A stretch of DNA of 64,000 nt from Minisyncoccota bacterium (GTDB taxonomy: Bacteria; Patescibacteriota; Minisyncoccia; Phycocordibacterales; Phycocordibacteraceae), in the NCBI GenBank assembly GCA_035547315.1, contig DASZVH010000004.1:76108-140107 (forward strand), read 5' to 3'. A program made the translations under genes and the position numbers. The notes below the pieces were generated by a model, which made no database searches, was not told the origin of the DNA, and was given only the letters and a program-made list of their open reading frames with translations. Shown one piece after another: positions 4,522-63,561 of the stretch (the first letter of the stretch is position 1; each line of letters starts with the position of its first letter).

Positions 4522-4589
4522 TGCTTTACAAAACAAATGAGTAGTGTATTATAGAGCAAGTACGGCCTTTCAAGAGGGAGAGCAGAGTA

Positions 4590-5291: not shown

Positions 5292-5347
5292 CGGGAGTAT
5301 GCGGGCCGGACCTTCGTGTCCGGCCCGCTTTTCTATATAATCGTAGG

Positions 5348-7081
5348 ATGACGCAGCGCGAGGCGCTCGAGATACTCAAGACGGGCGCGAACGTCTTCCT
5401 CACCGGCGAGCCGGGGAGCGGCAAGAGCTACGTGGTGGGGAGCTATGTCGAGTGGCTGCGCGCGCGCGGGCTCGAGCCGGCGGTCACCGCCGCGACCGGG
5501 ATCGCGGCCGCGCAGATCAGCGGGATGACGGTCCACTCTTGGAGCGGGATCGGCGTGCGCGAGCGGCTCTCGGCCGCCGAGGTCGACCAGATCGCAAGTA
5601 AGGAGCACGTCGCGCGCCGCGTGGCGCGCACCTCCACGCTCGTGGTCGACGAGGTCTCGATGCTTTCCGCCGCGCTCCTCGAGGCTCTCGACGCCGTCTG
5701 CAAGGAGATCCGTCGCTCGGAGCGGCCGTTCGGCGGTCTGCAGCTCGTGCTCGTGGGCGACTTCTTCCAGCTCCCGCCCGTGCTCCGCCGGAGCTCCGGC
5801 GGAGGCGAGCGGCAATCGCTCTTCTGCTACGACTCCGCCGCCTGGCGCGAGCTCAACCCGCTGATCTGCTATCTCGGCGAGCAGCACCGCCAGGAGGACA
5901 GGGAGTATCTCGAGGTCTTGAGCGCGATACGCCGCGGCGAGGTCGAGGAGCTGCACTACGAGCGGATCAACGCGCGCCGGATCGAGCCCGGGCAGGCACC
6001 GCGCCTGGGCGAGGCGCCGCGCCTCTACTCGCACAACGCGGACGTCGACCGGGAGAACGCCGCCGAGCTCGCCAAGCTCCCGGGGGCGCCGCGCGCCTTC
6101 CTCATGAGCGCGCGCGGCGCCCCCGCGCTCGTCGAGGGGTTGAAGCGCGGCTGTCTCTCGCCCGAGCGGCTCGAGCTCAAAGAGGGCGCGGCGGTCATGT
6201 TCACCAAGAACTCGCCGACCGGCCGCTACGTCAACGGCACGCTCGGCCGCGTGATCGGGTTTGACGCCGCCGGATTGCCGATAGTCGAGATGCGCAGCCC
6301 CTCGCCGGGCTCGGTGCGGCCGGCTCCGTATATCGCGGAGCCGGTCGAGTGGCAGGTGGAGGAGAACGGCAACGTGCGCGCCGCGATCAGTCAGCTGCCG
6401 CTGCGGCTCGCCTACGCGATGACGGTGCACAAGAGCCAGGGGCAGTCCCTGGACGCCGCGCTCGTCGACCTCTCGCGCGCCTTCGAATACGGCCAGGGCT
6501 ATGTCGCGCTCTCGCGCGTGCGCACACTCGCGGGGCTCCACCTCGCGGGCATCAACGAGCGCGCGCTCCTGGTCCACCCGGAGGTGCTCGAGCGCGACCG
6601 CGATTTCCGCGCGGCCTCAAGCGCCGCGGCCGAGACCTTCGAGGCGATGGGCGCGCCGGAGCGCGAGACGCTGCAAAAGAACTTCGTCAAAGCCTCGGGA
6701 GGCGAGTGGAACGCGCGCGCCGCGCCCGCGCCCGCGCGGCGCGGCGGCGCGGCGGCGCGGCGGCAGGCGATGGAGGCCAAGCTCGCGCAGACGCTCGAGC
6801 GCGTGCGTGCGGCGCCCTCGCTCGCGGAGGCCGCGCGCACGCGCGGGCTCGCCGAGAGCACTATCCTGACGCATCTGGAAAAGCTCGCCGCCGCCGGCGC
6901 GCTCTCGCGGGAGGATTTCTCCCATCTCCTGCCCGCCGCGGGCGACCTCGCCAAGATCAGGCTCGCGCTCAAGGCCAAAGGCGGCGAGAAGCTCGCGCCC
7001 GCCTTCTACGCGCTCAAGGGCCGCTACCCCTACGAGGTTATCCGTCTGGCTCGCTTGGGGTATGATGGGGCGGATGCCTAA
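5348..7081 (+). CDS. PIF1/RecD-like ATP-dependent DNA helicase (P-loop GEPGSGKS, DEVSM box) with C-terminal extension
   Basis: FLTGEPGSGKSYV...LVVDEVSMLS...LVLVGDFFQLPPV...MTVHKSQGQSLD...YVALSRVR motifs. Confidence 0.7.
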   Translation: MTQREALEILKTGANVFLTGEPGSGKSYVVGSYVEWLRARGLEPAVTAATGIAAAQISGMTVHSWSGIGVRERLSAAEVDQIASKEHVARRVARTSTLVVDEVSMLSAALLEALDAVCKEIRRSERPFGGLQLVLVGDFFQLPPVLRRSSGGGERQSLFCYDSAAWRELNPLICYLGEQHRQEDREYLEVLSAIRRGEVEELHYERINARRIEPGQAPRLGEAPRLYSHNADVDRENAAELAKLPGAPRAFLMSARGAPALVEGLKRGCLSPERLELKEGAAVMFTKNSPTGRYVNGTLGRVIGFDAAGLPIVEMRSPSPGSVRPAPYIAEPVEWQVEENGNVRAAISQLPLRLAYAMTVHKSQGQSLDAALVDLSRAFEYGQGYVALSRVRTLAGLHLAGINERALLVHPEVLERDRDFRAASSAAAETFEAMGAPERETLQKNFVKASGGEWNARAAPAPARRGGAAARRQAMEAKLAQTLERVRAAPSLAEAARTRGLAESTILTHLEKLAAAGALSREDFSHLLPAAGDLAKIRLALKAKGGEKLAPAFYALKGRYPYEVIRLARLGYDGADA

Positions 7082-8228
7082 GGAGCGCAGGGAGGAGGGA
7101 AAGCCGCGCGCGGCCGCCGCGCGCGGCGCGCATATCTCGCTCGGCCTCGGCGGGCTCGTCCTGATCGGCGCGGGCGCTTACCTCGCGCTCTGGAGCAACC
7201 TCTTTTCGATCGAGTACACGCGCGCGGACGGCGCGAGCTCGACCCCGCGCTACAAGGCGATCGACCCGGCGCTCTACAACCTCGAGGAGCTCGCGCTCGC
7301 GCACATCGACCCCTCCTTGACCACCCTGCTCCAGCCGCAGAACGCCTCCTCGACCTTGCTGGCCGCGACCACCACCGCCTCGAGCTCGGTGGCGATAGCG
7401 GGGAAGGCCTGGCCCGCGCCCTCGCCCTACCCGGCGCCCGGCGCGCTCCTCCCCGCGCATCGCATCGTGGCCTACTACGGCAACTTCTATTCCACCGCGA
7501 TGGGCGTGCTCGGCGAGTACCCCGCGGACCAGGTGCTCGCGATGCTCGCCTCCACGAGCGCCGAGTGGGAGGCGGCGGATCCGGCCACGCCGGTCATCCC
7601 GGCGATCGACTACATCGCGGTGACCGCGCAGGCCGCCGCCGGCGCCGACGGCAAGTACCGCGCGCGCATGCCGGCGAGCCAGATCGAGCAGGCGATCGCG
7701 ATGGCCAGCCAGCTCCACGGCATCGTGATTCTCGACGTGCAGGTCGGGCTCTCCGACCTGCCGACCGAACTCCCGCTCTTGGCGCCCTATCTCTCGCTCC
7801 CCAACGTCAATCTCGCGATCGATCCCGAGTTCTCGATGCAGACCAGCGGAGCCCGGCCGGGAACCGTCATCGGCACGTATAGCGCCAAGGATATCGACTA
7901 CGCGATCGACTACCTCGACTCCCTGGTGAAGCAAAACGATCTGCCGCCCAAGATCCTGGTGGTGCACCGCTTTACCGAGGACATGGTGACCAATTACCAA
8001 AACATCACGCCGCTCCCGGACGTGCAGGTGGTGATGGACATGGACGGCTGGGGCGACCAAGCCAAGAAGATCAACACCTACGAGCGCGTGATCGCGAGCG
8101 AGCCCGTTGAGTTCACCGGCTTCAAGCTTTTCTACAAGGCGGACTTGAAGCCGCCCTCGACCGGGCTTCTCGCGCCCGCGCAGGTATTGGCGCTCACGCC
8201 CGCGCCGATTTTCATCCAGTATCAATAA
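7062..8228 (+). CDS. hypothetical membrane-anchored protein, possibly TIM-barrel glycoside-hydrolase-like extracytoplasmic domain
   Basis: ORF overlapping helicase stop by 20 nt; TM segment LGGLVLIGAGAYLALW; motifs IVILDVQVG, ILVVHRFTEDMV, VVMDMDGWGD suggestive only. Confidence 0.45.
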   Translation: MMGRMPKERREEGKPRAAAARGAHISLGLGGLVLIGAGAYLALWSNLFSIEYTRADGASSTPRYKAIDPALYNLEELALAHIDPSLTTLLQPQNASSTLLAATTTASSSVAIAGKAWPAPSPYPAPGALLPAHRIVAYYGNFYSTAMGVLGEYPADQVLAMLASTSAEWEAADPATPVIPAIDYIAVTAQAAAGADGKYRARMPASQIEQAIAMASQLHGIVILDVQVGLSDLPTELPLLAPYLSLPNVNLAIDPEFSMQTSGARPGTVIGTYSAKDIDYAIDYLDSLVKQNDLPPKILVVHRFTEDMVTNYQNITPLPDVQVVMDMDGWGDQAKKINTYERVIASEPVEFTGFKLFYKADLKPPSTGLLAPAQVLALTPAPIFIQYQ

Positions 8229-21037: not shown

Positions 21038-22240
21038 CTACGCGGCGACGCGGTATTTGCGCGTCTCGCCGCCCATGGCGACCCGCGCCTGGATCTTCCC
21101 CCAGTGGGGAGAATCGCGGCCGATCGTCATAGGGACTTCCCAGTCTTCGCGCGTGAGCTTGAGGACCGTCTGGGCCGGCGGGAGCTCGAAGGCCCTCCGA
21201 GCGTTTTCCGAAAGGAAGCCGCTCAGGTGTTGGAGACGGCCCCGCTCGGCAAAGCGCTCGACGACATACGAGATAGTCGCCTGGGGGATCTGCGTCTGGC
21301 CGCCAAGGACGATACCGTCCTTGTTGATCTTCACGCCGGTGGCGCGCGCCGTGTCGTCGACATGGCATGCGTCGTCGGCGCCGAAGTGCCAGAACGGCTC
21401 TCCTGAGACCATCGCGTCCTCGACCGCCTGTTGGTCGGAGGAGAGGCCGAAGATCGGCAAGCAGAAGGGATGTACATTGAGCGCGGTGCCGCCCTTGCCG
21501 TCCTCGAAGAGATCGTCGATGCAGTACTGGGTGTAGTGCGGCGCGATCTCGCCGAAGATGTTGTAGCCCTTCTTCCTCAGGTAGCGGATGATCTCGAGGG
21601 TCGAGGCGCGGGAGACATGGCAGATATTCACCCATGCCTCAGGCACGGCGTCGTAGATCTGCATCAGGTCCCGCTCGATCGACTCCGGCTCGCGCATAAG
21701 GAAATTGACGCGGCGCCCCGAGCGGTAATACTTCCGCTCGAAGTGGCCCATCAGCATGAAGTGCTGCTGGCTGTACACGCGGCGTCCCATATCGTTCATG
21801 GCTCGCACGAAGGGGATGATCTTACTGACATCGTCCACATCTCTGCCGTTGCTGTTGCTCGCGGCCTTGATGAAGACTTTCACTGCATCCACGGCCCGCC
21901 TTTCTTCAGGCTGATCGAACCCGGCGATGAGGTCGTTCGGATCGGTCTTCTCCGTGAGCAGGGGCGCGACCAGGATCTGGAGCGGCGCGCCCTCCGGCAC
22001 GAACGACTGCCAGCGCTTCTTCTTTGCGCCGGCGAGCGCTGCGGTCGTGAGCGCCGTCGCGGTATTGCCCATGCCGATGATCGTCTCGAAGACTTTGGCG
22101 AAGCGCGGGACGAGCATTTCGGTGCGCCCGTCCTTGTCTTCGTCATCGTCGCGCGGATGCGTATGAGTATTGAAGATCCCCGGGATGGAGATCTCGGCAG
22201 GATAATGGGTCGCATCTGCGACCGGGTGGCCCAAGGACAT
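21038..22240 (-). CDS. pyrC: dihydroorotase
   Basis: MSLGHPV...IPGIFNTHTHPRD..., PHYTQY, FGADDACHV motifs; start cat 22238-22240 with AAGGGGG RBS; upstream part of track ORF 21038..22507 is spurious extension. Confidence 0.8.
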   Translation of the reverse strand: MSLGHPVADATHYPAEISIPGIFNTHTHPRDDDEDKDGRTEMLVPRFAKVFETIIGMGNTATALTTAALAGAKKKRWQSFVPEGAPLQILVAPLLTEKTDPNDLIAGFDQPEERRAVDAVKVFIKAASNSNGRDVDDVSKIIPFVRAMNDMGRRVYSQQHFMLMGHFERKYYRSGRRVNFLMREPESIERDLMQIYDAVPEAWVNICHVSRASTLEIIRYLRKKGYNIFGEIAPHYTQYCIDDLFEDGKGGTALNVHPFCLPIFGLSSDQQAVEDAMVSGEPFWHFGADDACHVDDTARATGVKINKDGIVLGGQTQIPQATISYVVERFAERGRLQHLSGFLSENARRAFELPPAQTVLKLTREDWEVPMTIGRDSPHWGKIQARVAMGGETRKYRVAA

Positions 22241-22307
22241 GATTGCCCCCTTTCTGTATGGCCGTTGCGATAAGGACTGCGAATCCGGGCGGAATCTACC
22301 ACGGGAA

Positions 22308-22346
22308 CGGGCAAAAAGAAACGCCGCGGGGCAAGGCCCCGCGGCG
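22308..22346 (-). terminator. rho-independent terminator downstream of pyrD-like gene
   Basis: On minus strand: gccgcggggc-ctt-gccccgcggc hairpin followed by GUUUCUUUUUG. Confidence 0.45.
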
Positions 22347-22352
22347 CTGCAT

Positions 22353-23303
22353 TCAATAGGATTTACCAGCCAACTCATGGCCGCGCTCGATGATAGAGCG
22401 CACGCGCCAGGGCCGGAGCATCGCGACCGTCGTGAAGAAGATCGAGTCGGCGCCTGCTTCGCGGATAAGATCCACGTCGCTTGGCCGCATGATCCCGCCA
22501 CCGCCATTGATGTAGGTCGTGGCGTCGAGTGTGCGGAATCTCCGTATCCAATCCGCGACTAAAGGAGCGAGGCCGCTGCCCGAGAGACCGCCTTTCCCAT
22601 AGTCGCGCTTCTCGAGCGGAGAGCCATTGGGATAGACCAAACTCCAGCTGATATCGTGCGGCATCTCGCCGAACGGGATCGTATTGGTGAGGCAGAGCCC
22701 AGCGCACTCATGCATCTGGGCGATCTCTGCCGCGGCCTCTGGAGCGACGGTGAGATTGATCTTCACCACGATGGGGATCCCGAGCTTTGCAAGGATGGGG
22801 AGAAGGCGTTTTGCCTTTTCCACAATCTTTGAGAGATCGGCACCGACGTTCGGACACGTGAGATTGAACTGCAGCGCCACAAAGCGGCTCTCGAAGCTCC
22901 GCAGCGCAATCTTAAGCTCGATCGCGAACTCCTCGGTCTCACGCTCTTGTTCCTCGTCCGTCTTGCCGATTGGCATGAAGGAGACGAAGAAGGGTTCGGC
23001 GATGTGCTGCCAGCGCTCCGTAGCGAGGAAGGCTTTGATTCCGGGATTCGAAAGGCCAACGGCATTGAGCGCACGTCCGCCAATCACGCGGGCATCGATA
23101 CAGTCGGGGAAGAGTGCGTATGGCTGGTAATCCGCCGTAAGCAGCATGTTGCCTTTGTTTGGAAAGGCGGTAATCGTCTTTGCGACGAGCGTCGAGCCCT
23201 TGAAGGAGAGGTTCGGTACCAGCTTATGGAACCAATAGCCCTCTCCTGAAAAGCCGCGTACGCCGCAGCCGTCCCAGACGGGGCCGAAAATACGAAGATC
23301 CAT
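22353..23303 (-). CDS. pyrD: dihydroorotate dehydrogenase family protein (class 1-like, Cys active site NLTCPN)
   Basis: ALNAVGLSNPG and FNLTCPNVG motifs; start cat 23301-23303 with AGGAGA RBS; track ORF extension to 23438 runs into tRNA and is rejected. Confidence 0.6.
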   Translation of the reverse strand: MDLRIFGPVWDGCGVRGFSGEGYWFHKLVPNLSFKGSTLVAKTITAFPNKGNMLLTADYQPYALFPDCIDARVIGGRALNAVGLSNPGIKAFLATERWQHIAEPFFVSFMPIGKTDEEQERETEEFAIELKIALRSFESRFVALQFNLTCPNVGADLSKIVEKAKRLLPILAKLGIPIVVKINLTVAPEAAAEIAQMHECAGLCLTNTIPFGEMPHDISWSLVYPNGSPLEKRDYGKGGLSGSGLAPLVADWIRRFRTLDATTYINGGGGIMRPSDVDLIREAGADSIFFTTVAMLRPWRVRSIIERGHELAGKSY

Positions 23304-29208: not shown

Positions 29209-31386
29209 TCACTCGAGGTGGATAGTCGCGGCGGCGCCCCGCGCGAGACGCGCGAGGAGCGGGTAGCTGGCAAGCTCCGGATCCTTGGCAAGGAGGCGCT
29301 TGGCCTCGCTCCGGGCCGCCTCGACGAGGCGTAAATTACCCAATGATTCCATAGCGATGTCGGATACTCCCCACTGATTTCCGCCCATGAGCTCGCCCGC
29401 TCCCCGCAGCGCCAGATCCCGCTTGGCGAGCTCAAAGCCGTTCTTGGCCGTGATGAGCGCGGTGAGGCGGGCCCGCACGCTCGCGGCCTTCGATTCGGCG
29501 AGGAGGAAACAGTACGCTTGGCGGTCGGAGCGGATCACGCGGCCGCGCAGCTGGTGCAGCTGCGCGAGGCCGAAGCGTTCGGCACCCTCAATCAGAATCA
29601 CGGTCGCGTTCGGCACGTTGACGCCCACTTCGACGACCGAGGTCGCGACCAGGATCTGCACCTCGCCCGCCGCGAACATGCGCATGGACTCCTCTTTCTC
29701 GGCTGGCGTCATCTTGGAGTGGAGGATACCGATGTCGAACTCGGGGAAGACCTCCTGGGCGAGCCGCGCGGCCTCCGCTTTTACCGAACGCATCTCACGC
29801 TTCTGGGGCTCGCCCGCGCCGCCGGCTTCTGCCGGGTCGATGCGCGGGCAGATAACGTATGCCTGGCGGCCCGCGGCGAGCTCCGCGCGCATGCGCTCGT
29901 ATGCGGCCGCGCGCGCCGCGGGCGCGACGACCTCGGTGATCACCGGCCGCCGGCCTGCCGGCAGCTCGTCGAGCACGGAGAGATCCAGATCGCCGTAGAG
30001 CGTGAGCGCGAGCGTGCGCGGGATCGGCGTCGCCGTCATCGAAAGCAGATGCGGCGTCAACAAGGTTCGTCCTTGTTTCAAGGTCGAACCTTGTTTGGTG
30101 ACGAGCTTCTGCCGGTGCGCGGTGCCGAAGCGATGCTGCTCTTCGATCACGGCGAGCGCGAGCCGCTTGAAAGAGAGCGTCTCCTGGATGAGCGCGTGCG
30201 TGCCGATGACGATCGGGATGAGGCCGTCGGCCACCCGCTTGCGGAAGGTCGCGCGCGAGAGCGCGGCGGACTCTTCGTAGGAGACGCGCGAGGGGAACAC
30301 GCGCGTCTCGCTGCCCGTGATGAGGCCGATCGGGATCGGGTGCGCGCGGAAATAGGAGACGAAGGTGGAGAAGTGCTGCTTGGCGAGCACCTCGGTCGGG
30401 CACAGGTAGGCGACCTGCGCGCCCGCCGCCGCGGCCAGATACGCCGCCGCCGCCGCGACCGCCGTCTTGCCGCTCCCGACGTCGCCCTCCAGGAGGCGCA
30501 GCATCGGCACGGGGCGCGCGAGGTCGCGCGCGATCGCCGCGATAGCGCGCCGCTGCGCGCGCGTCGGCGGGAAGGGAAAACTCGCGACGAACGCTTCGAG
30601 GAGGCCGGCGCCAGGCGCGAGCTCGAGCGCGCGCGTCGCGCGCACGGTGCGGCGGCGCTCCTCGAGCGCGAGCGTGAGCGCGAGGATCTGCTCGAAGGCG
30701 AAGCGCTTGCGGGCCGCGGCGGCATCTCCGGCCCGCCGGGGCCGATGTATATATATGAGCGCGTTCTCGAACGCCGGGAGCCGGTAGCGGCGCAGGAGCT
30801 CGGGGGGCAGCGGGTCGGCGAGCGCGCCGGCGAGCGCCTTGAGCGTTTTCCCGATCGCGTGGAAGAACCAGAGCGAGCTGATGCCCTCGCTTTCGGGGTA
30901 GACGGGGAAGACGGCGGGAGCGGGCGCCGGGCCGGGAGCCGGAGAGAAGAGCGAGGCATGCGCCTCCTCGGGGTCGATCGGCGCGCGATCCACCTCGGGG
31001 TTCGCGAGATAGGCGCCGCTCCCGGATCCCGCCACCCTCCCGCTCACCTTAACCGCCATGCCTTCGCGCAGCGATTTGGCGATATACGGCTGGGAGAACC
31101 ACATGAGCTTGATGCGTCCGCTCGCGTCCTCGAGCCAGGCCTCGGCCAGCGGGCGGCGGCTCTTCCAGCTCTTGCGTGCCTCGGGCTTGCGGATGACGCC
31201 GTAGAGCGTCGCGCTCGCGCCCGGCGCGACGCCCGCGATCGTCGCCGAGGGGCCGGCGGCCTCGTAGCGGGAGGGGAAGTGGTAGAGCAGGTCGTGCAGG
31301 GTCGCGATCTTGAGGCGCTTCAACGCGCGCCGCTGCTCCGGCTTGAGCTTGGGGAAGAGCTTCTCGAGCGGGTCGGCGGGAGCCAC
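29209..31386 (-). CDS. recG: ATP-dependent DNA helicase RecG
   Basis: Helicase motifs GDVGSGKT, DEQHRFG, LLSMTATPIPRTLALT, ...VEVGVNVPNATVILIEGAERFGLAQLHQLRGRV; start probably GTG/TTG near 31386-31392 (no ATG); upstream part of track ORF is Arg-rich non-coding extension. Confidence 0.85.
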   Translation of the reverse strand: MAPADPLEKLFPKLKPEQRRALKRLKIATLHDLLYHFPSRYEAAGPSATIAGVAPGASATLYGVIRKPEARKSWKSRRPLAEAWLEDASGRIKLMWFSQPYIAKSLREGMAVKVSGRVAGSGSGAYLANPEVDRAPIDPEEAHASLFSPAPGPAPAPAVFPVYPESEGISSLWFFHAIGKTLKALAGALADPLPPELLRRYRLPAFENALIYIHRPRRAGDAAAARKRFAFEQILALTLALEERRRTVRATRALELAPGAGLLEAFVASFPFPPTRAQRRAIAAIARDLARPVPMLRLLEGDVGSGKTAVAAAAAYLAAAAGAQVAYLCPTEVLAKQHFSTFVSYFRAHPIPIGLITGSETRVFPSRVSYEESAALSRATFRKRVADGLIPIVIGTHALIQETLSFKRLALAVIEEQHRFGTAHRQKLVTKQGSTLKQGRTLLTPHLLSMTATPIPRTLALTLYGDLDLSVLDELPAGRRPVITEVVAPAARAAAYERMRAELAAGRQAYVICPRIDPAEAGGAGEPQKREMRSVKAEAARLAQEVFPEFDIGILHSKMTPAEKEESMRMFAAGEVQILVATSVVEVGVNVPNATVILIEGAERFGLAQLHQLRGRVIRSDRQAYCFLLAESKAASVRARLTALITAKNGFELAKRDLALRGAGELMGGNQWGVSDIAMESLGNLRLVEAARSEAKRLLAKDPELASYPLLARLARGAAATIHLE
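30059..30096. repeat. tandem palindromic units CAAGGTTCGTCCTTG-ttt-CAAGGTCGAACCTTG inside recG coding sequence (in-frame)
   Basis: Read directly; related to element in lepA. Confidence 0.55.
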
Positions 31387-31457
31387 GAGCAAAGTATACG
31401 CGCCCGCGCATAGATAAGAAGCGGGCCCGCCAGCGCGATGCTGGCGGGCCCGGAAGT

Positions 31458-31940
31458 TCACGGCCGGTAGGTGAGCCGCGCGAGGATCAGGTCGGCGTCG
31501 GCCGGCCTCCCCCCGAAGCGCGCAACATCGAACGCGGCGACGTGCTCGTAGCGCAGGCCGCCGCCGACGTTGCCGCCCTGCGGCAGGAGGTCGAGATCGG
31601 CGCCCGCCACGAAGGCGGCGTGATCGCCGGCTCCCTGCGCCTCGCCGACGCCGCCGAAGGCGGCGACGGTGATGGTCTTGCCGGCAAGCGGGAAGCGGTA
31701 GCCTCCCCGTGCCGCGACGGCCTCGAGGCTGCGCAGCTCGGGGGCCGAGAAGCCCTCGGCCTGCAGCTCGCCGCCGATGCTCCAAGGGCCGAAGCCCTCC
31801 TCGAGCCCGATGCTGCCGCCGCCCGCGATCGCGGAGCCGGCGCCGACATTGATCGACGCCGTAGTGGCGAAGCCGTCGGCCATCGCGGAAGAGTACGACA
31901 ATACAAGGGCCGCAGCGGCGGCCAAAGCGAACATTCTCAT
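31458..31940 (-). CDS. Gly/Ala-rich secreted protein, possibly small outer-membrane beta-barrel
   Basis: Signal peptide MRMFALAAAAALVLSYSSAMA with AAAGGAG RBS upstream; alternating G/A-rich amphipathic stretches; C-terminal ...RLTYRP. Confidence 0.4.
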   Translation of the reverse strand: MRMFALAAAAALVLSYSSAMADGFATTASINVGAGSAIAGGGSIGLEEGFGPWSIGGELQAEGFSAPELRSLEAVAARGGYRFPLAGKTITVAAFGGVGEAQGAGDHAAFVAGADLDLLPQGGNVGGGLRYEHVAAFDVARFGGRPADADLILARLTYRP

Positions 31941-35886: not shown

Positions 35887-36162
35887 GTGGCCATGATCGT
35901 GCACGGCCATCAGTTGCGTCCGCCGTATGTCGAAGGCGAAACCATGGAGGACTATGGAAAGAAACGCGGCGAATCTCGCGCGGACTGGATCAACCGGGCC
36001 GGCACGCGCCGCCGCAAGGCGGATTTGCGGCTGTGCGACGAGCTCGAGAGCCAGGACCTTTCACTACTGACCGGTCGCCAGAGCGCCGAAGCGAGGCCGC
36101 ATCACCTGCGGCGCCCGCCGAGGACACACATCGATCTCACGAAAGGGAAGCGGCGCGCGTAA
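35887..36162 (+). CDS. hypothetical small protein (uncertain)
   Basis: GTG/ATG start options; no family recognised; included because intergenic gap otherwise 330 bp. Confidence 0.25.
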   Translation: MAMIVHGHQLRPPYVEGETMEDYGKKRGESRADWINRAGTRRRKADLRLCDELESQDLSLLTGRQSAEARPHHLRRPPRTHIDLTKGKRRA

Positions 36163-36198
36163 GCGCGCCGTTAGCCATTGTGGTATAAAAGCGGGAAC

Positions 36199-36285
36199 GG
36201 AGGCGTCGCATAGTGGTCTAGTGCACCGCCTTGGAAAGGCGGCAGGCTCGAAAGGGCCTCGAGAGTTCGAATCTCTCCGCCTCCG
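36199..36285 (+). tRNA. tRNA-Ser (anticodon GGA)
   Basis: Hand-folded: acceptor GGAGGCG/CGCCTCC, anticodon stem CCGCC/GGCGG loop UUGGAAA, long variable arm (18 nt), T-arm GAGAG-TTCGAAT-CTCTC, discriminator G. Confidence 0.8.
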
Positions 36286-36351
36286 CCCTTAGAAAAAAGT
36301 ATCGGACAGACCCGAGTACCCAGAAATCGGGTCCCGAGCTAAAATGGGCAT

Positions 36352-36915
36352 ATGCAGACAAATGTCTTAATTTTCCACGGCACGGAAGGATATCCGGAGG
36401 AAAACTGGTTTCCTTGGATGAAAACCGAGATGGAGCAACGAGACTGCAAAGTGTTTGTGCCACAGTTCCCATCGCCGCCAGAGGTCGCTGCGAAAATCGG
36501 CGAGTGGTTTGACGTCCTGAAGGGGTACGAACAATATCTCGACGAGAACACGATCTTGATAGGTCATAGTTTGGGCGGAAAGTTTGCGCTGCGTCTTTTG
36601 GAAAAGTTGGAATGCCCAGTAAAAGCGGTTGCGTTCGTGGGTACGCCGATCGGAGTTCCGCCTATCGCAAATAACGAGCGCGACAATGCATTTACTGGGA
36701 ATGATTTCGATTGGGATGCAATTCGGAAGAAGGCAAAACATTTCATGGTGTACCAGTCAGATACGGATCCATATGTTGGGCTTGATAATGGAAAGGAACT
36801 CGCGAGACAGCTCGGCGTCGAGCTTTCGTTCGTCCCGAACGCAGGGCACTTCAACGCAAAAGCTGGATATACGAAATTTGATGCGTTGCGCGATGACATC
36901 TTGAAAATCCTCTAA
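36352..36915 (+). CDS. alpha/beta-fold serine hydrolase (YdeN/RBBP9-like)
   Basis: VLIFHGTEGYPEENWFPW..., nucleophile elbow GHSLGG, ...DTDPYV..., GHF. Confidence 0.7.
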   Translation: MQTNVLIFHGTEGYPEENWFPWMKTEMEQRDCKVFVPQFPSPPEVAAKIGEWFDVLKGYEQYLDENTILIGHSLGGKFALRLLEKLECPVKAVAFVGTPIGVPPIANNERDNAFTGNDFDWDAIRKKAKHFMVYQSDTDPYVGLDNGKELARQLGVELSFVPNAGHFNAKAGYTKFDALRDDILKIL

Positions 36916-36924
36916 CGACTTGCC

Positions 36925-37563
36925 ATGAGCTCCTCGGACGACATTGAACTTTCGGAAGCCCAATTCAACGAGTTTTACGAGAACTTCGGCTCCAATTCCT
37001 TTCAACTGCAAGGACGTGTGCTTGAAGACTTAGGGACGAAGCAGCTCGACATATATTTCAAGTCGATAGGATTCGCGACAACCGTAATCGGTGTCGTTGG
37101 TTTGATAGCTGGATTCGGGTTTACAGCCCTCGACCATGTAGAAAGCATGGCGCTATTTTTCTTTGGCGAAGTTCTATTGCTTGGAGGACTTTTTTACGGA
37201 CTCTTCTGGACTCAACAAAAATATCAGGCCGAATTTAAGTCGCTTGAGGAGGAGCGAAAGAAGCTCGCAGCTTTTTACGAGAAGAGGAATGGTAAATTTA
37301 TGGAGCTTTACAACAAATGGATTTCCGAACGGAGAATAAGCCGCACAGCTTTCGTTGAGTTGAACGAGATAGACAAAGGCTCGATAGAGCTTTTTAGAAC
37401 CGAAAAAGACAGACCGATCCCGTCAATCTATTCGCAGGCAATGTATATTCTCATGATCGCGGGTACGGTCGTCCTCCTCTCCTCCTTCTTCATTTGCCTA
37501 AATACAAAAAACAACCCGCGACCCGGAGGCCTCGATAATTTTTATTGGGGGCGGCTAAAATAG
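36925..37563 (+). CDS. hypothetical membrane protein (low-GC islet cargo)
   Basis: Four hydrophobic segments; lower-GC codon usage than flanks. Confidence 0.45.
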   Translation: MSSSDDIELSEAQFNEFYENFGSNSFQLQGRVLEDLGTKQLDIYFKSIGFATTVIGVVGLIAGFGFTALDHVESMALFFFGEVLLLGGLFYGLFWTQQKYQAEFKSLEEERKKLAAFYEKRNGKFMELYNKWISERRISRTAFVELNEIDKGSIELFRTEKDRPIPSIYSQAMYILMIAGTVVLLSSFFICLNTKNNPRPGGLDNFYWGRLK

Positions 37564-37733
37564 CCTTACAAGGATTGACCTCAAAAGTCTGAATCCCTCA
37601 CCCTCCGCAGATAGAAACTTCGGACTCGGACAGAGCCGCGCCGCGAAGCGGCGCGGCAGAGTGGGCGGGCAGAAAATCCCGCCGCGAAGCGGCGAATTCA
37701 GACGGGGCGGCGGCGGAAAAATGCGGGGACTTG

Positions 37734-37770
37734 GCACGAACCGTAGGGTTCGTTCCGATTTTTTGTACAA
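37734..37770 (+). terminator. rho-independent terminator (acgaacc-gtag-ggttcgt + UUCCGAUUUUUUG) ending a structured non-coding stretch
   Basis: Read directly. Confidence 0.45.
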
Positions 37771-37900
37771 ACACGTCTGGCGGAGCTTCAACGTAAAACT
37801 CTTATTGAATCTACCGGATCAGGTGCTTGAGCCCAAAAGTCCGAACTGCTGACGGCCCGCACATGTTAGAATCGGGGCATTAGATAACCCGAGACTGCCT

Positions 37901-38191
37901 ATGTACGGAGACCGGCCGAGAGTGACGCCCCACGAGTTCCAACACTACGTGCGCCCGGAGCTCTTGAACAAGGGATTCACCGAGCACCAGATCAACCAGG
38001 TCGAGACGGCGTTCCACGAATCCTTGGCGGGGAACCCGCACCTGCCCTCGTGGAAGCCGGGCGTAGACGCCGAGAATCTTGCGCAGACGATGCAATACAT
38101 GCGCGCGCACCCGGGCGCGACGATGGTCGGCCCGCACCACTGGGACGCCGTCAACGAGGTGATGGAGAAATATATCCATGAGCGCCACTAG
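37901..38191 (+). CDS. hypothetical protein
   Basis: ORF with high GC3; overlaps cax start by 14 nt; no family recognised. Confidence 0.35.
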   Translation: MYGDRPRVTPHEFQHYVRPELLNKGFTEHQINQVETAFHESLAGNPHLPSWKPGVDAENLAQTMQYMRAHPGATMVGPHHWDAVNEVMEKYIHERH

Positions 38192-39712: not shown

Positions 39713-39718
39713 TTTTTT
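39681..39718 (+). terminator. rho-independent terminator overlapping DUF192 stop codon
   Basis: aaacgccgcctc-tcatc-gaggcggcgttt hairpin followed by gattttttgg. Confidence 0.5.
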
Positions 39719-39720
39719 GG

Positions 39721-40080
39721 GGACCCGGCCGATAAGCCGAATTCTGTCTTGCTTCGCCGTAGCCCGGCGAGGCGAGGCGATCATTTATCTGTCTCGATTG
39801 TCGCCAACCGGATCAAGCGGCACCCCCGCCGCACCTCGCAGGTGGGCGGGTACGGCCTTGCACGCGGGTAAGGATTTAGCCGTTTCATCCCGTACCTTGC
39901 GGTACGGCTCGCCCCTCGGGATTACCCTCGGGGCGCTTGCACGCTTTCGCCGCAAGCGTCTCTGTTCGCACCTCGCGCCTCGCGGCGTGCGGGGATTACC
40001 CGCTACCTTGCTGCTCCCGAGGGAGCGCGTGTTCGGACTTTCCTCCCCGCCGAAAGCGGAGCGATCGCCTGGCCGGGTCC
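39721..40080 (-). ncRNA. rnpB: RNase P RNA (bacterial type A-like)
   Basis: Minus strand: P1 GGACCCGGCC...GGCCGGGUCC closing helix; P4 strands GGGAGGAAAGUCCGAACAC and ACAGAAUUCGGCUUAUCGG present at expected 5'/3' positions; about 360 nt; track ORFs here are Arg-rich non-coding. Confidence 0.75.
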
Positions 40081-44258: not shown

Positions 44259-46082
44259 GTGGAGATACGCAACTTCTCGATCATCGCGCACATTGACCAC
44301 GGGAAGAGCACCCTGGCTGATCGCCTGCTCGAGAAGACGGGCACTATCCCCGAGCGCAAGATGCGCGCGCAGGTCTTGGACAAGATGGACCTCGAGCGCG
44401 AGCGCGGGATCACGATCAAGATGCAGCCGGTGCGGATGACCTATCGCGCGGCGGACGGTCGCGACTATATTTTGAATTTGATCGATACGCCCGGGCATAT
44501 CGACTTCTCCTATGAGGTCTCGCGGGCGCTTAAGGCGGTCGAGGGCGTCGTCTTGCTTGTGGACTCTACCCAGGGAGTCCAGGCGCAAACGTTGACCACC
44601 CTCGCCGCGGCCAAGGAGGCCGGCTGCGCTATCATCCCGGTGGTCTCCAAGATAGATTCTCCCTACGCGCGCGTGCCGGAGGTCAAAGCGGAGCTCGCGC
44701 GCCTGCTCGAGGTCCGGGAGGGGAGTGTGCTCGCGGTCTCGGGGAAGACGGGCGCCGGCGTAGAGCAATTGCTGCAGGCAATTGTGGAAAGAGTGCCCGC
44801 GCCGACAAGGTCGAACCTCGTAAATCCCGAAGGTTCGACCTTGTCGGGCGAAGCGCGCGGGCTCATCTTCGACTTCTCCTATTCCACGCACCGCGGCATC
44901 GCCGTCTATCTGCGCGTCTTCGACGGCTCGATCAAGGCGGGCGACAAATTGTCCTTCCGCGCGGCAGGCCGTGATTTTACGGCCCTCGAGGTCGGCGTCT
45001 TCACCCCCGAGGAGGCGCCCACCGCCGCGCTTGGCGCGGGAGAGATCGGCTACGTGGTCACCGGCATCAAGGAGCCGGGCGTGGTTGCGGTCGGCGACAC
45101 CGTCGGCGCCACCAAGGGTGCTCTGCCGGCCCTGGCGGGTTTTGAACGGCCGCGTCCGGTGGTCTGGGCCTCCGTCTATCCGGAAAGCCAAGACGATCTG
45201 CCACTTCTTCGCCAGGCGCTTGAGCGCCTGCGGCTCTCCGACTCCTCGCTCTCCTTTGAGGAGGAATCATCCGGGGTGCTCGGGCGAGGCTTCCGCTGCG
45301 GGTTCTTGGGGCTCCTCCATTTGGAGATCATCACGGAGCGCCTGCGGCGCGAGTTCAGCCTCACCTTGGTGGTCACGATCCCGACGATCTCCTATGTGGT
45401 CACCACGGAGAACGGCAAAACAGAGACTTACTACACGCCGGCCAAGTTCCCCGAGTTCGGCGAGATCAAAGAGATCCGCGAGCCTTGGGCAAACGCGATT
45501 ATCATCACGCCCCCAGAGTCCCTCTCCGGCATCATGCAGCTCCTCTACGAGCATGAGGCGGAAGTTAAAAACACCGAGACCTTCCCTGACGGCAGGATCG
45601 AGCTTGCTGCGGAGCTGCCCTTGCGGGAGCTTATGCGCGGATTCTTCGATGCACTCAAGAATGTCTCCTCGGGCTACGCGAGCCTCTCCTATGAGCTCCT
45701 GCCAGAGCGGCCGGCCGACGTGGTGCGTCTCGATATCTTGGTCGCGGAGGAGCCGGTGCCCGCCTTCGCGCGGATCGTCGCGCGGCGGCGCGTACAAGAG
45801 GAGGCGGAGAAGATGGTCGAGCGCCTCCATGCCATACTCCCCAAGCAGCTCTTTGTCACCAAGATCCAGGCGCGCGCCTTGGGGCGGATCATCTCCTCGC
45901 GCTCCTTATCCGCGATGCGCAAGGATGTCACGGGTTACCTCTACGGCGGCGACGTCTCCCGCAAGCAAAAACTCCTGCAAAAGCAGAAGCGGGGCAAGAA
46001 GAAGCTCCTCGCGCACGGCACCGGCCGGGTGACCATCCCCGAGGACGTCTTTATGAAGATGGTGCAGGAAAGCGACCGCTAA
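44259..46082 (+). CDS. lepA: elongation factor 4 (LepA)
   Basis: GTG start; IRNFSIIAHIDHGKSTLADRLL, DTPGHIDF, SKID G-motifs; C-terminal LepA-specific region ...LLQKQKRGKKK. Confidence 0.9.
   Translation: MEIRNFSIIAHIDHGKSTLADRLLEKTGTIPERKMRAQVLDKMDLERERGITIKMQPVRMTYRAADGRDYILNLIDTPGHIDFSYEVSRALKAVEGVVLLVDSTQGVQAQTLTTLAAAKEAGCAIIPVVSKIDSPYARVPEVKAELARLLEVREGSVLAVSGKTGAGVEQLLQAIVERVPAPTRSNLVNPEGSTLSGEARGLIFDFSYSTHRGIAVYLRVFDGSIKAGDKLSFRAAGRDFTALEVGVFTPEEAPTAALGAGEIGYVVTGIKEPGVVAVGDTVGATKGALPALAGFERPRPVVWASVYPESQDDLPLLRQALERLRLSDSSLSFEEESSGVLGRGFRCGFLGLLHLEIITERLRREFSLTLVVTIPTISYVVTTENGKTETYYTPAKFPEFGEIKEIREPWANAIIITPPESLSGIMQLLYEHEAEVKNTETFPDGRIELAAELPLRELMRGFFDALKNVSSGYASLSYELLPERPADVVRLDILVAEEPVPAFARIVARRRVQEEAEKMVERLHAILPKQLFVTKIQARALGRIISSRSLSAMRKDVTGYLYGGDVSRKQKLLQKQKRGKKKLLAHGTGRVTIPEDVFMKMVQESDR
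44804..44845. repeat. 42-nt palindromic element (15-bp perfect arms GACAAGGTCGAACCT / AGGTTCGACCTTGTC, 12-nt spacer) in-frame within lepA
   Basis: Read directly; encodes TRSNLVNPEGSTLS inserted between ...RVPAP and GEARGLIFD... Confidence 0.6.
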
Positions 46083-46985: not shown

Positions 46986-48062
46986 CTATTCGGTGAACAC
47001 AATGTTGACGAAGGCGCCAATCGAGCCTACCCAGAGCAGATACTTGGGAAAGCAGCGAATAAGTTCCGCCGTGCTCAAGAGCACGTTGCCGCGCGGAAGA
47101 TCGTATTCCCGCTCGGCATACTGCGAATCGCTGATCATCCAGTAGTAGGAGCGGTCATAGCGAACGAAGCCGCATACCACTTGGTTATGCTGGCCGTGCA
47201 TGCGACGCTGCGCATACAGGACGACATTTACCATATAGCCGTTGCAGATCGCCTCCGCCAAGTTGCTCTCGAACTTCGAGAGCGTCCATAAGCGCCATGG
47301 AGCATTGATGCCGTACTTCTGGAGGAAGCTGGTGACTTGCGACGGCAGGGCGTGCTTGAAGTACTTTCCTTGACCGGGATCCTTTTTGAAGGCACCGACG
47401 ATGCTCCTGGCAGCGATCTGCGCGCAGTAGAAACCAGGCTCAAAGTCCGTGATGTAGACGGGCTTCCGAACGCTGGCCACTACTTCGTCCGGCCTCGACT
47501 GCTCGAACGGTTTTGCCGCATCGATCAATTCCTGTTCGCCTGCACGGATGGTACGGACGCGCAGGAGGAAGCGGTGATCAAGCGACCAGCGTTTCTTTGT
47601 CGCCGGGACGCCATAGACCCACTGCTCGCGTTTGTTGCTTGCGGGCAATCGAACGCTCTGGAGAGCGTAGCCGTAGTCAGCATAGGTCAGTGCGGTCAGC
47701 ACTTCACCGAGCTTGTCGGAGTCGTTGTCCAGACAGAGCCGCAAGAGTGCTTCAATGTCGCAAACATCGAATACTTTGCCGCGAGGCAAGTATTTCTTGC
47801 TTGCGGGATATAGGCACCGCGAACCCCTGAGATCTCCCATGAATGGAGGCTCGGTACAACCAAGCTCGCGAGCTGTGAGGATCGCGCACTCAATCGTGCC
47901 AGCCAGTGCCGTTTCGTCGGAAGCACGGTAGTATTTCTTCAGGAAGGCGCGGCCGAGGCTATCAACGCGATAGCCAACAGCACGTAGCTCTTGGGGGAGC
48001 GACTGCGCCAAGCCGCGTTGCCAAGGCAGTAGTGAGATATTGAACGTGGCAATGGTCGCCAT
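46986..48062 (-). CDS. hypothetical protein (lower GC, about 55%); likely horizontally acquired
   Basis: Long ORF with protein-like composition; no family recognised. Confidence 0.5.
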   Translation of the reverse strand: MATIATFNISLLPWQRGLAQSLPQELRAVGYRVDSLGRAFLKKYYRASDETALAGTIECAILTARELGCTEPPFMGDLRGSRCLYPASKKYLPRGKVFDVCDIEALLRLCLDNDSDKLGEVLTALTYADYGYALQSVRLPASNKREQWVYGVPATKKRWSLDHRFLLRVRTIRAGEQELIDAAKPFEQSRPDEVVASVRKPVYITDFEPGFYCAQIAARSIVGAFKKDPGQGKYFKHALPSQVTSFLQKYGINAPWRLWTLSKFESNLAEAICNGYMVNVVLYAQRRMHGQHNQVVCGFVRYDRSYYWMISDSQYAEREYDLPRGNVLLSTAELIRCFPKYLLWVGSIGAFVNIVFTE

Positions 48063-61888: not shown

Positions 61889-62800
61889 TTATTTTACAAA
61901 ACGAGTATATATCCCTGCGGGGACCACGCGCTCGGTCGAGGACTCTTTGATAAGGAGCTCGCCGGATTCTCCCGCCGTTTCGCCGAAGGCGCTCTCGACT
62001 GCCTGGGAGAAAGCGCGCGGCGAGTAGCCGGCAGCGTAGCCCGAAATAAGGAAGAAGGAGCCTGGCGCCTCGCCCAAGAGCTCTTTGAGGACGGCGAGGA
62101 GCGTGGGCAAGTCCTCCTCGATCTTCCACACCTCGCCTTTGCCGCCGCGGCCGAAGGCCGGCGGGTCGAGTATGATGCCCTCATACTTCGCCCCGCGGCG
62201 CGCCTCGCGCTTGGCGAAGGCGAGGCAATCGTCCGGGATCCAGCGGATCGCGCCCTCGGCGAGGCCGGTGGCGCGCGCGTTCTCATGCGCGTAGTCGAGC
62301 GATTGCTTCGAGGAGTCCACATGCGTCACGAAAGCGCCTGCGTGCGCCGCCGCCAAGGTCGCGACGCCGGTATAGCCGAAGAGGTTCAGCACGCTCGGTT
62401 TCTCGACGCCACCCGCGATAAGCGCTTTGACCCGATCCTTGATCCAGATCCAGTTGGGTTCCTGCTCGGGGAAGACGCCGGTATGCTTGAAGCCCGAGAG
62501 GCGAGCAATGAACTTGAGCGGGCCGCGGCTCATCTCCCAGCCGTTATCGAGGTTTAACCTCGATAACGGAGGTAACGGAGGTTTAACCTCGGTGACGGTC
62601 CAACTGCCTTTGCCGTTTGAGAAGGCGAACTCCGCGCTTGTCTCGCTCCAACGTTCGGGCGCGCGTTTAGCCCAGAGCGCCTGCGTCTCCGGGCGCGCGA
62701 CGACGATCTTGCCGAAGCGCTCGAGCTTCATGTTCTCGCCGCTGTCGAGGAGCTCGTAGTCCTCCCAGCCTTTGGTCACCAGGTGTTTGTCGTGGGTCAT
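61889..62800 (-). CDS. class I SAM-dependent rRNA methyltransferase (RlmI/RlmK-like)
   Basis: VLNLFGYTGVATLAAAHAGA, ...IILDPPAFGRG..., PUA-like N-terminus; start cat 62798-62800 (ATGA overlap with rlmB-like stop). Confidence 0.7.
   Translation of the reverse strand: MTHDKHLVTKGWEDYELLDSGENMKLERFGKIVVARPETQALWAKRAPERWSETSAEFAFSNGKGSWTVTEVKPPLPPLSRLNLDNGWEMSRGPLKFIARLSGFKHTGVFPEQEPNWIWIKDRVKALIAGGVEKPSVLNLFGYTGVATLAAAHAGAFVTHVDSSKQSLDYAHENARATGLAEGAIRWIPDDCLAFAKREARRGAKYEGIILDPPAFGRGGKGEVWKIEEDLPTLLAVLKELLGEAPGSFFLISGYAAGYSPRAFSQAVESAFGETAGESGELLIKESSTERVVPAGIYTRFVK
62541..62598. repeat. 29-nt perfect palindrome (CCGTTATCGAGGTT-t-AACCTCGATAACGG) plus adjacent partial copy (CGGAGGTTTAACCTCGG) inside methyltransferase coding sequence, in-frame
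   Basis: Read directly; encodes ...PPLPPLSRLNLDNG...; AT-richer than flanks. Confidence 0.55.
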
Positions 62801-63561
62801 GCAGAAGGGGTCGACAGGGAAGCGGGGTGCTTTTTGCTCCACTCGTAGAAGACGATGCCTGCCGAGGCTGCGGCGTTAAGCGATTCGGTGCGCGGGTGCA
62901 TCGGGATGGCGAGCGTGATATCGCAGGCCGCGAGCGTCTTTTCCCTGATTCCCGCGCCTTCGTTCCCGATCACGAACGCCGAGGGCTTCTCGAAGCCTTC
63001 GTTCCCGAGCGCTTGGCCCTCCATGTCGAGGCCGTAGGTCCAGAAGCCCTTCTTCTTCAAGACCTCGAGCGCGTGGTTGACGTTGCCTATAGAGACGAGC
63101 GGGATGCGGAAGGCCATGCCCGCCGAGCTCTTCACCACGGCGCCCGTGATCGGCGCCTGATTACGCTCGGGGATGAGCACGGCCGAGAGGCCGAAGGCCG
63201 CCGCCGAGCGGATGATCGCGCCCACGTTGTGCGGGTCTTGCACTTCTCCGAGGACTGCTATCGCGGTATCTTCTGATACCTCAAGCGACTCGATAAAGTC
63301 ATCAAATTGCGTCAGGAGCTTCCCCGGCTCCATGAGCGCGACGACGCCCTGGTGGACCGCGTCGCGCCCAGCCATCTCGTTGCCGTTCTTGAGGAGGTCG
63401 GTCGGGATCTTGTGCGTAGCGAGCATCTCCGCGAGCTCGTGGTCGCGGAGCTCGGGCGCGAGATATACTTTCTTGATGACGGCCGGATTGCCCGCAAGCG
63501 CCTCCTCAAGCGCGTGCTTGCCGTAGATATAGACCTTCTCGTTCTTTTGCGGCCGAGCCAT
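62797..63561 (-). CDS. rlmB: TrmH/SpoU-family RNA 2'-O-methyltransferase (RlmB-like)
   Basis: VYIYGKHALEEAL, QDPHNVGAIIRSAAAFG, FVIGNEGAGI, ...ESLNAAASAGIVFYEW. Confidence 0.8.
   Translation of the reverse strand: MARPQKNEKVYIYGKHALEEALAGNPAVIKKVYLAPELRDHELAEMLATHKIPTDLLKNGNEMAGRDAVHQGVVALMEPGKLLTQFDDFIESLEVSEDTAIAVLGEVQDPHNVGAIIRSAAAFGLSAVLIPERNQAPITGAVVKSSAGMAFRIPLVSIGNVNHALEVLKKKGFWTYGLDMEGQALGNEGFEKPSAFVIGNEGAGIREKTLAACDITLAIPMHPRTESLNAAASAGIVFYEWSKKHPASLSTPSA

Follow-up and report, generated by a model that had tools for sequence, protein, structure and literature searches.

A palindromic insertion in lepA and a REPIN-like repeat family of Patescibacteria

In a 64,000-nucleotide stretch of DNA from a Minisyncoccota bacterium (contig DASZVH010000004.1 of assembly GCA_035547315.1; hereafter the window, with a GC content of 65%), the lepA gene, which encodes translation elongation factor 4 (EF4), carries a palindrome within its reading frame. 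This locus raises the question of where the palindrome came from and how the gene tolerates it. A sequence-only reading had interpreted it as a member of a selfish or mobile palindromic repeat family tolerated as peptide insertions, and this interpretation was supported by an empty site in a relative, by the linker position of the element and by the dispersal of the family. That reading was essentially right and is refined here. The family extends across the phylum Patescibacteria (Candidate Phyla Radiation, CPR), it has the anatomy of repetitive extragenic palindromic (REP) sequences and their inverted doublets (REPINs), and in relatives it accompanies a candidate mobilising enzyme that resembles REP-associated tyrosine transposases (RAYTs). 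We consider it likely that the lepA element is a doublet of the REPIN type, that it belongs to a REP/RAYT-like system extending across the CPR, and that LepA tolerates it as a translated insertion in a loop.

The palindrome in the LepA linker

The sequence GACAAGGTCGAACCT-cgtaaatcccga-AGGTTCGACCTTGTC was confirmed at 44804-44845 of the window, and the 42-nt palindrome lay in frame in lepA as described. Its arms, reported as perfect over 15 bp, were indeed perfect, but an inverted-repeat search of the window gave their length as 17 bp (44802-44818 and 44831-44847). The doublet (44802..44847, forward strand) consisted of a left unit AGGTCGAACCT at 44808-44818, a 12-nt spacer cgtaaatcccga at 44819-44830 and a right unit AGGTTCGACCT at 44831-44841, and its outer stem CCGACA/TGTCGG ran on into the codon for the final proline of the conserved PAP motif. 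The host gene (44259..46082, forward strand) was a 607-aa open reading frame (ORF) with 100% identity to the NCBI entry 'translation elongation factor 4 [Candidatus Paceibacterota bacterium]', and in its translation the element read TRSNLVNPEGSTLS. A single strand of 60 nt spanning the site folded as one hairpin. This hairpin is far beyond chance, both as DNA (-25 kcal/mol, z = -8.0) and as RNA (-39.4 kcal/mol, z = -7.5), since none of 200 shuffles folded as well in either case.

To place the element in the protein, the window LepA was compared with 120 Paceibacterota homologs of 76-85% identity (P numbers denote these proteins and L numbers the DNA loci that were fetched). In most of the homologs, the linker between the PxP and E[PA]RG motifs comprised 5-9 residues. 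The closest homolog, P0002 (85% identity), had an empty site, PAP-RASESAS-EARG, and its DNA (L007, 65% GC) contained no palindrome at the lepA linker and no repeat unit within 17 kb. The insert was therefore lineage-specific. Compared with Thermus thermophilus EF4 (5imq), the window LepA was longer by 9 aa precisely where the G domain joins domain II, and alignment to the EF4 structures 5imq and 3cb4 placed the insert between IVERVPAP and RGLIFD. The position was argued from these structures. The AlphaFold2 (AF2) model of the window LepA was poor (mean predicted local distance difference test score, pLDDT, of 57.7), and its low confidence at residues 185-196 gave weak support for a disordered loop. 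The sequence-only reading had the element adding 14 codons to LepA. The in-frame peptide was as described, but judged by the empty ortholog and T. thermophilus EF4 the net gain is about 8-9 residues, the element having replaced or overwritten some of the variable linker; its exact boundaries could not be fixed because the empty-site linker was not alignable. On this comparison, the palindrome is an insertion and not a feature of LepA.

Related peptides occurred at the linker of 11 other LepA homologs, such as TRLNLVNSKGSTLS, ARLNLENSEGSTLS, SRSNLEVQGSTLK, RSNLGVQGSTLK and RSNLVEQGSTLA. DNA was fetched for six peptide-bearing homologs (L001-L006) from independent assemblies held at ENA, NCBI and JGI. 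All six contained palindromes on the common core at the lepA linker, with arms of 17-24 bp that were perfect in L001, L003, L004 and L005 and had one mismatch each in L002 and L006. In L001 and L002 the central triplet was TGA/TCA instead of the CGA/TCG of the window, so that both arms had changed together. The spacer was 12 nt in some lineages and 9 nt in others; the window element belonged to the 12-nt subfamily, as did those with the sequences tgtgaattctaa in L001, tgagaattccga in L002 and taagaattccaa in L011. At least three insertion points were distinguished, namely directly after PxP, after PxP-T/A, and after PPP-QSS/PSP-TSTS. In a neighbour-joining tree of LepA with the linker masked, which is a rough guide, the carriers fell in at least eight separate places, and the sister sequences P0019 and P0057 had different spacer types. 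The scattered tree positions and the distinct insertion points argue for recurrent acquisition in a permissive LepA linker rather than a single ancestral feature.

Other inserts were also observed in LepA. The Kaiserbacteria metagenome-assembled genome (MAG) of L002 (protein P0098) had a second doublet elsewhere in the gene (2123-2177), reading PQQGSTLNQNAPRLNLVEE. Linker peptides of the types ..S[FH]AKATEG.. and SHKATEG were found in P0028, P0031, P0099, P0080 and P0039, and the peptide SPTEKRESLTLPTLPE recurred at the linker of P0016, P0018, P0024 and P0035. These KATEG-type and SPTEKRESLTLPTLPE inserts may derive from other repeat families.

A dispersed family of palindromic units

The core AGGTNNNACCT had five matches in the window against 0.29 expected, a number that none of 100 shuffles reached, and all five lay at only three sites, in lepA, recG and a gene for an S-adenosylmethionine (SAM)-dependent methyltransferase. 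The recurrence in the latter two genes had been noted in the sequence-only reading and held. The recG doublet, AACAAGGTTCGTCCTTG-ttt-CAAGGTCGAACCTTGTT (30059..30095, reverse strand), comprised an intact unit at 30081-30091 and a partner unit AGGTTCGTCCT with one mismatch at 30063-30073, and its coding strand read KQGSTLKQGRTLL. It belonged to a 7-nt-spacer subfamily that was found too in L044, L087, L121 and L128. The repeat lay in a loop between the DEQH and TATP helicase motifs that was longer by 6 aa than in Escherichia coli RecG and by 10 aa than in Thermotoga maritima RecG. The recG ORF (29209..31785, reverse strand; Pfam DEAD, Helicase_C, RecG_wedge and RecG_dom3_C) is given at its maximal extent, and translation probably begins downstream of 31785.

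The methyltransferase copy (62541..62598, reverse strand), which read TVTEVKPPLPPLSRLNLDNG, departed from the pattern described for the other two, being a TTA variant built of tandem long-stem singlets rather than an inverted doublet. The first singlet, CCGTTATCGAGGT-TTA-ACCTCGATAACGG, had a perfect 13-bp stem (unit at 62550-62560), and the second was an imperfect copy (unit at 62579-62589); both units had the central triplet TTA. The GAGGTTTAACCTC type seen here formed a doublet in L078. The host gene (61889..62842, reverse strand; Pfam PF10672, Methyltrans_SAM) had an ortholog in L003 (62% identity) with 11 residues fewer at the repeat. Rfam had no match at any of the three repeats, its matches in the window being RNase P RNA, tmRNA and six tRNAs only. 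All three sites lay inside ORFs, in agreement with the statement that the copies are always in frame; this agreement is not independent evidence, because an essential gene could have stayed intact only with copies that keep the frame.

To determine how far the family extends, the doublet pattern AAGGTYSRACCT-N(0-24)-AGGTYSRACCTT was scanned in one genome per species (185,579 species). At least 120 stretches matched, whereas about 7 were expected by chance in 596 Gb according to our own estimate. The matches listed were almost all from Patescibacteria, with about ten records under other labels. Among them were Kaiser-, Lloyd-, Zambryski-, Nomura-, Taylor-, Vogel-, Moran-, Uhr-, Yonath- and Nealsonbacteria, as well as Levyibacteriota and many 'Saccharibacteria' bins, and one Lloydbacteria MAG had at least 9 loci with at least 12 doublets among the matches listed. 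The lepA palindrome thus belongs to a widespread dispersed family, as had been proposed.

The unit of this family is (A)AGGT-NNN-ACCT(T), a short stem-loop palindrome. In the fetched loci, the central triplets of the two units were reverse-complementary in 131 of 144 doublets (shuffled mean 25, maximum 41). In a fixed-register alignment of 136 sequences, both sides of the three central pairs were changed in 45-59 sequences and the pairs were unpaired in 2-6; the covariation score was 0.302 compared with 0.137 after shuffling (reached in none of 500 shuffles), and slid partners scored at most 0.119. Because the 136 sequences were family members and not orthologs, these values indicated that each copy has one and the same variant in its two arms, and not that selection acted site by site. 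Covariation at orthologous sites was also sought in pairs with the same spacer (L024/L029 and others), but their flanks were non-homologous, so these pairs reflect mobility or family structure rather than site-wise covariation. Other central triplets included CTG/CAG and TAA/TTA. The doublets were 32-66 nt long, with spacers that clustered at 12-13 and 16-17 nt and a GAATTC-like motif in 42 of 130. In a flank profile of 328 units, only a C-A / T-G extension of the stem was seen and nothing beyond it. Near-identical whole doublets of 45-56 nt, spacers included, occurred in non-homologous flanks of different species (L101/L114 and L034/L038).

The sequence-only reading had treated the repeats as a family of coding regions. 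We defined a doublet as intragenic when it lay within an open frame of at least 150 aa and at least 30 nt from its ends. By this definition, 82 of the 140 doublets of the fetched loci (about 59%) were inside genes, and the family was not confined to them, since 58 (41%) lay outside long ORFs. In such compact genomes, intergenic DNA is therefore over-used for its share, while the majority of copies are still intragenic. Units with central CGA/TCG, CGG/CCG or TGG/CCA were open in all six frames, so that three of the four common variants can be read through without meeting a stop codon. Among units in ORFs of at least 200 aa, the frame R[SFL][DN]L was used 77 times, [QK]G.TL 83 times and the proline frame KV.P 31 times. 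This skew against the proline frame was significant (chi-square 25.4, p = 3e-6), with the reservation that units within a doublet are not independent, and such a deficit would follow from translation of the elements and selection on their products. If translated, the repeats would give peptides that span PAPTRSNLVNPEGSTLSGEAR or the many RSDL and QG.TL junctions.

A few matches stood apart from the rest. Two IMG/VR contigs classed as viral matched the doublet pattern (L009 11323-11407 and L008 3125-3170), and L009 had three consecutive units in a 269-aa ORF; these contigs may be CPR phages or misclassified CPR DNA. Outside Patescibacteria, matches were found in Tenacibaculum agarivorans (L096, a direct and not an inverted pair), in Saprospiraceae (L084 and L088) and in a Firmicutes MAG (L069). 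These matches could reflect chance, the mis-binning of contigs or a distant relationship to the family.

A RAYT-like Y1 transposase in relatives

A gene of the Y1_Tnp family was located in L003 at 4455-5132 (reverse strand, 225 aa), 5 kb upstream of lepA, with one repeat unit just upstream of it and another abutting its stop codon. Using tblastn, homologs were detected in 10 of the 120 loci fetched with the doublet pattern, in addition to L003 and a decayed copy in L005. Units or doublets lay on both sides of the gene in L018, L032, L058, L062 and L065, and at least immediately upstream of it in L064, L094 and L109. About 11 of the 140 doublets abutted a Y1 gene, which by a rough estimate, assuming about one gene per genome, is two orders of magnitude above random placement. 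These results indicated that the repeats are associated with the transposase gene in relatives.

The protein passed the Pfam Y1_Tnp model (PF01797; 42.6 bits, cutoff 23), and its HUH motif (PNHFH) and tyrosine motif (YIHLNP) were invariant in 38 homologs. When its AF2 model (pLDDT 81, predicted template modelling score 0.82) was used in a fold search, the only match below E = 0.001 was 4er8_A (E 5.9e-5), the RAYT of E. coli in complex with a REP hairpin. Later matches included the TnpA proteins of IS608, ISDra2 and IS200, and 2a6o, 2xm3 and 2f4f were among the structures matched. A search of solved structures with the protein sequence gave no meaningful match, and only the fold search provided the link to 4er8. 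The family comprised at least 7,874 database proteins at E <= 1e-10, of which the named ones were Patescibacteria transposases.

One repeat unit was also present inside the Y1 ORF itself at a fixed place, at about residues 55-62 (4952-4962 in L003, and likewise in L094, L058, L109 and L064). The consensus of this segment was K.QGSTL.E; [QR]G.T[LS] was found in 104 of 120 homologs, with G58 and T60 nearly invariant, and the segment formed a low-confidence loop in the AF2 model. The internal unit may be a site of self-recognition, or else an old insertion that has changed in parallel with the repeat, and it hints at self-recognition or autoregulation. In L016, the Y1 gene (6786-7370, reverse strand) was flanked by a different palindrome, GCGGGTGTCCAACACCCGC, which suggests that CPR genomes contain several enzyme-repeat pairs. 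The homolog in L005 (4266-4937, reverse strand) had lost the HUH motif (PNKFD) and the flanking units, had only a AGGTGACACCT hairpin upstream and adjoined an RNase P-like sequence.

The window and L003 shared the synteny rnpB-TPR-murJ-lepA, with rnpB at 39717-40080 (reverse strand) in the window. In L003, RNase P RNA was recognised at 5276-5582 (reverse strand; RF00010, 64 bits, E 3.6e-19, below the gathering score), and in an Rfam search of L003 3300-5900 nothing reached the gathering threshold. The L003 transposase cassette lay just 3' of this RNA, between direct repeats of about 50 nt (4384-4432 and 5270-5318) that correspond to the 3' end of rnpB, which suggests that the cassette itself was inserted.

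Origin of the lepA element

The defining arrangement of REP/REPIN-RAYT systems, exemplified by E. coli REP-TnpA(REP) and the REPINs of Pseudomonas fluorescens (PMC3116915, PMC3337134, PMC5581495, PMC3479197), is that the same repeats flank a Y1/HUH transposase gene (PMC3337134, PMC5581495). The CPR repeats have a short palindromic unit able to form a stem-loop, two inverted units with a spacer that together make a long hairpin, and copies that are dispersed and, in the window, over-represented, and in relatives they flank a Y1/HUH gene whose predicted fold is closest to the RAYT 4er8. The methyltransferase site of the window resembles the 'a-palindrome-a^c' long singlets described as excision products of REPINs. 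There are also differences of detail: the CPR doublets are much shorter than the 89-bp P. fluorescens example (PMC3337134), and a unit lies inside the transposase ORF itself. In the searchable literature, no paper linking REP, REPIN, RAYT or IS200 to Patescibacteria/CPR was found.

By analogy with REP/RAYT and IS200/IS605 systems, the most likely mechanism would be that a transposase recognises the hairpin while the DNA is single-stranded at the replication fork and that it cuts and rejoins beside the hairpin. Doublets would thereby be copied into new positions. In gene-dense genomes, many of the copies would land in ORFs and would persist, presumably as neutral additions, where the frame is kept and the loop is permissive. 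The lepA copy would be such a case, lying in the variable linker between the G domain and domain II and translated with the net gain given above. Once inserted, the palindrome may lengthen outward, with hairpin-templated conversion changing whichever flank is less constrained.

Several observations weigh against this interpretation. REPs are extragenic by definition, whereas most of the CPR doublets lie in ORFs and are apparently translated; REP units have a GTAG/CGTC-type tetranucleotide at the foot of the hairpin, whereas no conserved target or guide tetranucleotide of this type appeared in the flank profile of the 328 CPR units; and REPs are typically species-specific, whereas the 11-nt CPR core hardly varies between CPR classes that are highly divergent and range in GC content from 49 to 65%. 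The only NCBIfam match of the Y1 protein was the REP-associated tyrosine transposase model NF047646, at 49.5 bits and below the cutoff of 80, so the protein is too distant to be called a RAYT by that model. In the window genome, tblastn with 12 RAYT-like proteins found no Y1 homolog in the 64-kb window or in the 7.6 kb added on its left from the Logan assembly of SRR12170514 (71.6 kb in total), and at the position next to rnpB where L003 has its Y1 gene, the window has none. The link to a transposase thus comes from other genomes, and a putative transposase of this genome would lie elsewhere in it.

The phylum-wide constancy of the core could point instead to a host function. The repeats would then be a host-selected cis-element, such as an uptake-type signal, a chromosomal-protein site or an RNA or terminator module, with the coding copies as by-products and the transposase link secondary. 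The 41% of doublets outside long ORFs despite the scarcity of non-coding DNA fit this explanation, as do doublets placed like terminators between convergent genes (L005 14259-14297). The uptake sequences of Neisseria and Haemophilus likewise occur as inverted pairs and within genes. However, units bracket RAYT-like genes in many genomes, which is the signature of REP/RAYT systems and is unexpected for uptake signals, and whole doublets are near-identical, spacers included, in unrelated contexts. Occupation of the lepA site is patchy and involves several points of insertion, and the other palindrome around the L016 gene suggests that enzyme and repeat pair up. Taken together, we regard a host-selected element as an unlikely origin of the family.

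The Y1 gene might alternatively be an ordinary autonomous insertion sequence (IS) of the IS200/IS605 type, with the doublets as derivatives resembling miniature inverted-repeat transposable elements rather than REPINs served by a domesticated single-copy RAYT. IS200/IS605 transposases act on sub-terminal hairpins in single-stranded DNA and make no target-site duplication, and the CPR system shares with them the hairpins and an HUH motif with a catalytic Tyr on the Y1_Tnp fold. Membership of Pfam Y1_Tnp together with the sub-cutoff NCBIfam score would be expected of such an element, many Y1 homologs are on contigs of 1-2 kb, as multi-copy repeats that break assemblies would give, and the direct repeat of the rnpB 3' end around the L003 cassette points the same way. 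Against this, the top fold match was the RAYT 4er8 and not the TnpA of IS608 or ISDra2, and the protein has about 220 aa with a C-terminal extension, whereas the matched IS200, IS608 and ISDra2 TnpA chains have 125-152 residues. In addition, the hairpins that flank the gene are units of the dispersed repeat and not distinct left and right ends, and no TnpB-sized partner gene was called beside the gene in L003 or L005. An autonomous insertion sequence was accordingly judged to be a rather improbable source of the doublets.

Two further possibilities concern the lepA site alone. The palindrome could have arisen locally by inverted duplication or template switching, as a quasi-palindrome unrelated to any mobile family. 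The arms run past the core into host sequence in a locus-specific manner: in three lepA lineages, the conserved Pro codons to the left of the core pair with reverse-complementary sequence to its right (for the window CCG...CGG, for L001 CCGCCG...CGGCGG and for L005 GCCGCC...GGCGGC). Classical miniature inverted-repeat transposable elements have terminal inverted repeats and a direct target-site duplication; the lepA element is an inverted repeat over its whole length, and its flanks are reverse complements and not direct repeats. Moreover, 51 of 130 doublets in the family had at least 4 bp of locus-specific stem beyond AGGT..ACCT. However, the core and the spacer types recur in recG, in the methyltransferase gene and at more than 120 loci elsewhere, and template switching would account for growth of the stem after insertion but not for the origin of the core. 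A purely local origin is thus very unlikely; template switching is likely a secondary process, and the extra stem across the family fits the outward growth by hairpin-templated conversion suggested above for the REPIN-like doublet. An assembly or chimera artefact is barely credible, for although assembly errors can create palindromes and the lepA copy has no second assembly (the Logan contig SRR12170514_5978, which carries murJ, stops at window position 44413, 390 nt ahead of the palindrome), homologous palindromes occupy the lepA linker in the six independent assemblies, the methyltransferase repeat is reproduced at 100% identity in the Logan assembly of SRR12170514, and the reading frame is intact. 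In this region, the independent Logan assembly of the run was broken into pieces of 5.8, 8.2 and 20.7 kb, compared with a contig of 143 kb in the MAG.

Other repeat systems were compared with the REPIN-like doublets. The sequence-only reading had drawn a parallel with Rickettsia palindromic elements (RPEs; Ogata et al. 2000/2002), which, according to PMC10969869, are about 150 bp long and encode a conserved peptide. By that length, the RPE peptide has about 50 aa. The parallel held for insertion in frame in unrelated housekeeping genes of a small-genome bacterium with the peptides tolerated, but not for the size, the conserved peptide module or the lineage: RPEs are known only from Rickettsia, whereas the CPR inserts add 8-14 aa, use all frames, also lie in intergenic DNA and have a candidate transposase. 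RPEs are thus an analogy in outcome and not relatives. To our knowledge, no transposase has been linked to them. Small dispersed repeats of heterocyst-forming cyanobacteria, said to have been described by Elhai et al. in 2008, are reportedly palindromic, 20-30 nt long, mobile and present also within coding regions. Their sequences are unrelated to the CPR repeat and come from a different phylum, and we know of no transposase association established for them. An intein, an intron, a CRISPR repeat and mimicry of a tRNA T-arm were considered and dropped because their size and anatomy did not fit.

If the REP/RAYT-like interpretation is correct, a REP/REPIN architecture with a RAYT-like enzyme would be found mainly inside essential genes of ultra-small bacteria, in contrast to the extragenic repeats of textbooks, and would reveal the fate of non-autonomous mobile DNA once intergenic space has nearly vanished. 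It would also account, through a specific mechanism, for some of the protein insertions of CPR bacteria that have lacked an explanation. That a phylum-wide system places miniature doublets in genes routinely enough to be a general source of lineage-specific CPR protein insertions is, in our judgement, a proposition with about an even chance of being right. Such a system is predicted to offer a natural set of loop sites that tolerate insertions, along with a small HUH enzyme specific for hairpins. In practical terms, the repeats are a plausible cause of contig breaks, in line with the short contigs on which many Y1 genes are found, and they add peptides such as RSDL, QGSTL and KVEP to annotated proteins and alignments.

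Some minor features of the window were also recorded. A hairpin with an 8-bp stem, CAAGGACGATACCGTCCTTG, was present at 21304-21323 within an ORF (21038-22507). It shares the ends CAAGG...CCTTG with the family, but the AGGT/ACCT core is absent, and it was not counted as a member. Two stretches, 36000-38000 and 46986-48062, had a lower GC fraction (0.50-0.57 compared with 0.65 for the window). The former contains a tRNA (36199-36285), a serine hydrolase gene and an ORF without a Pfam match, and the latter is a 357-aa ORF, likewise without a Pfam match; both may be acquired DNA.

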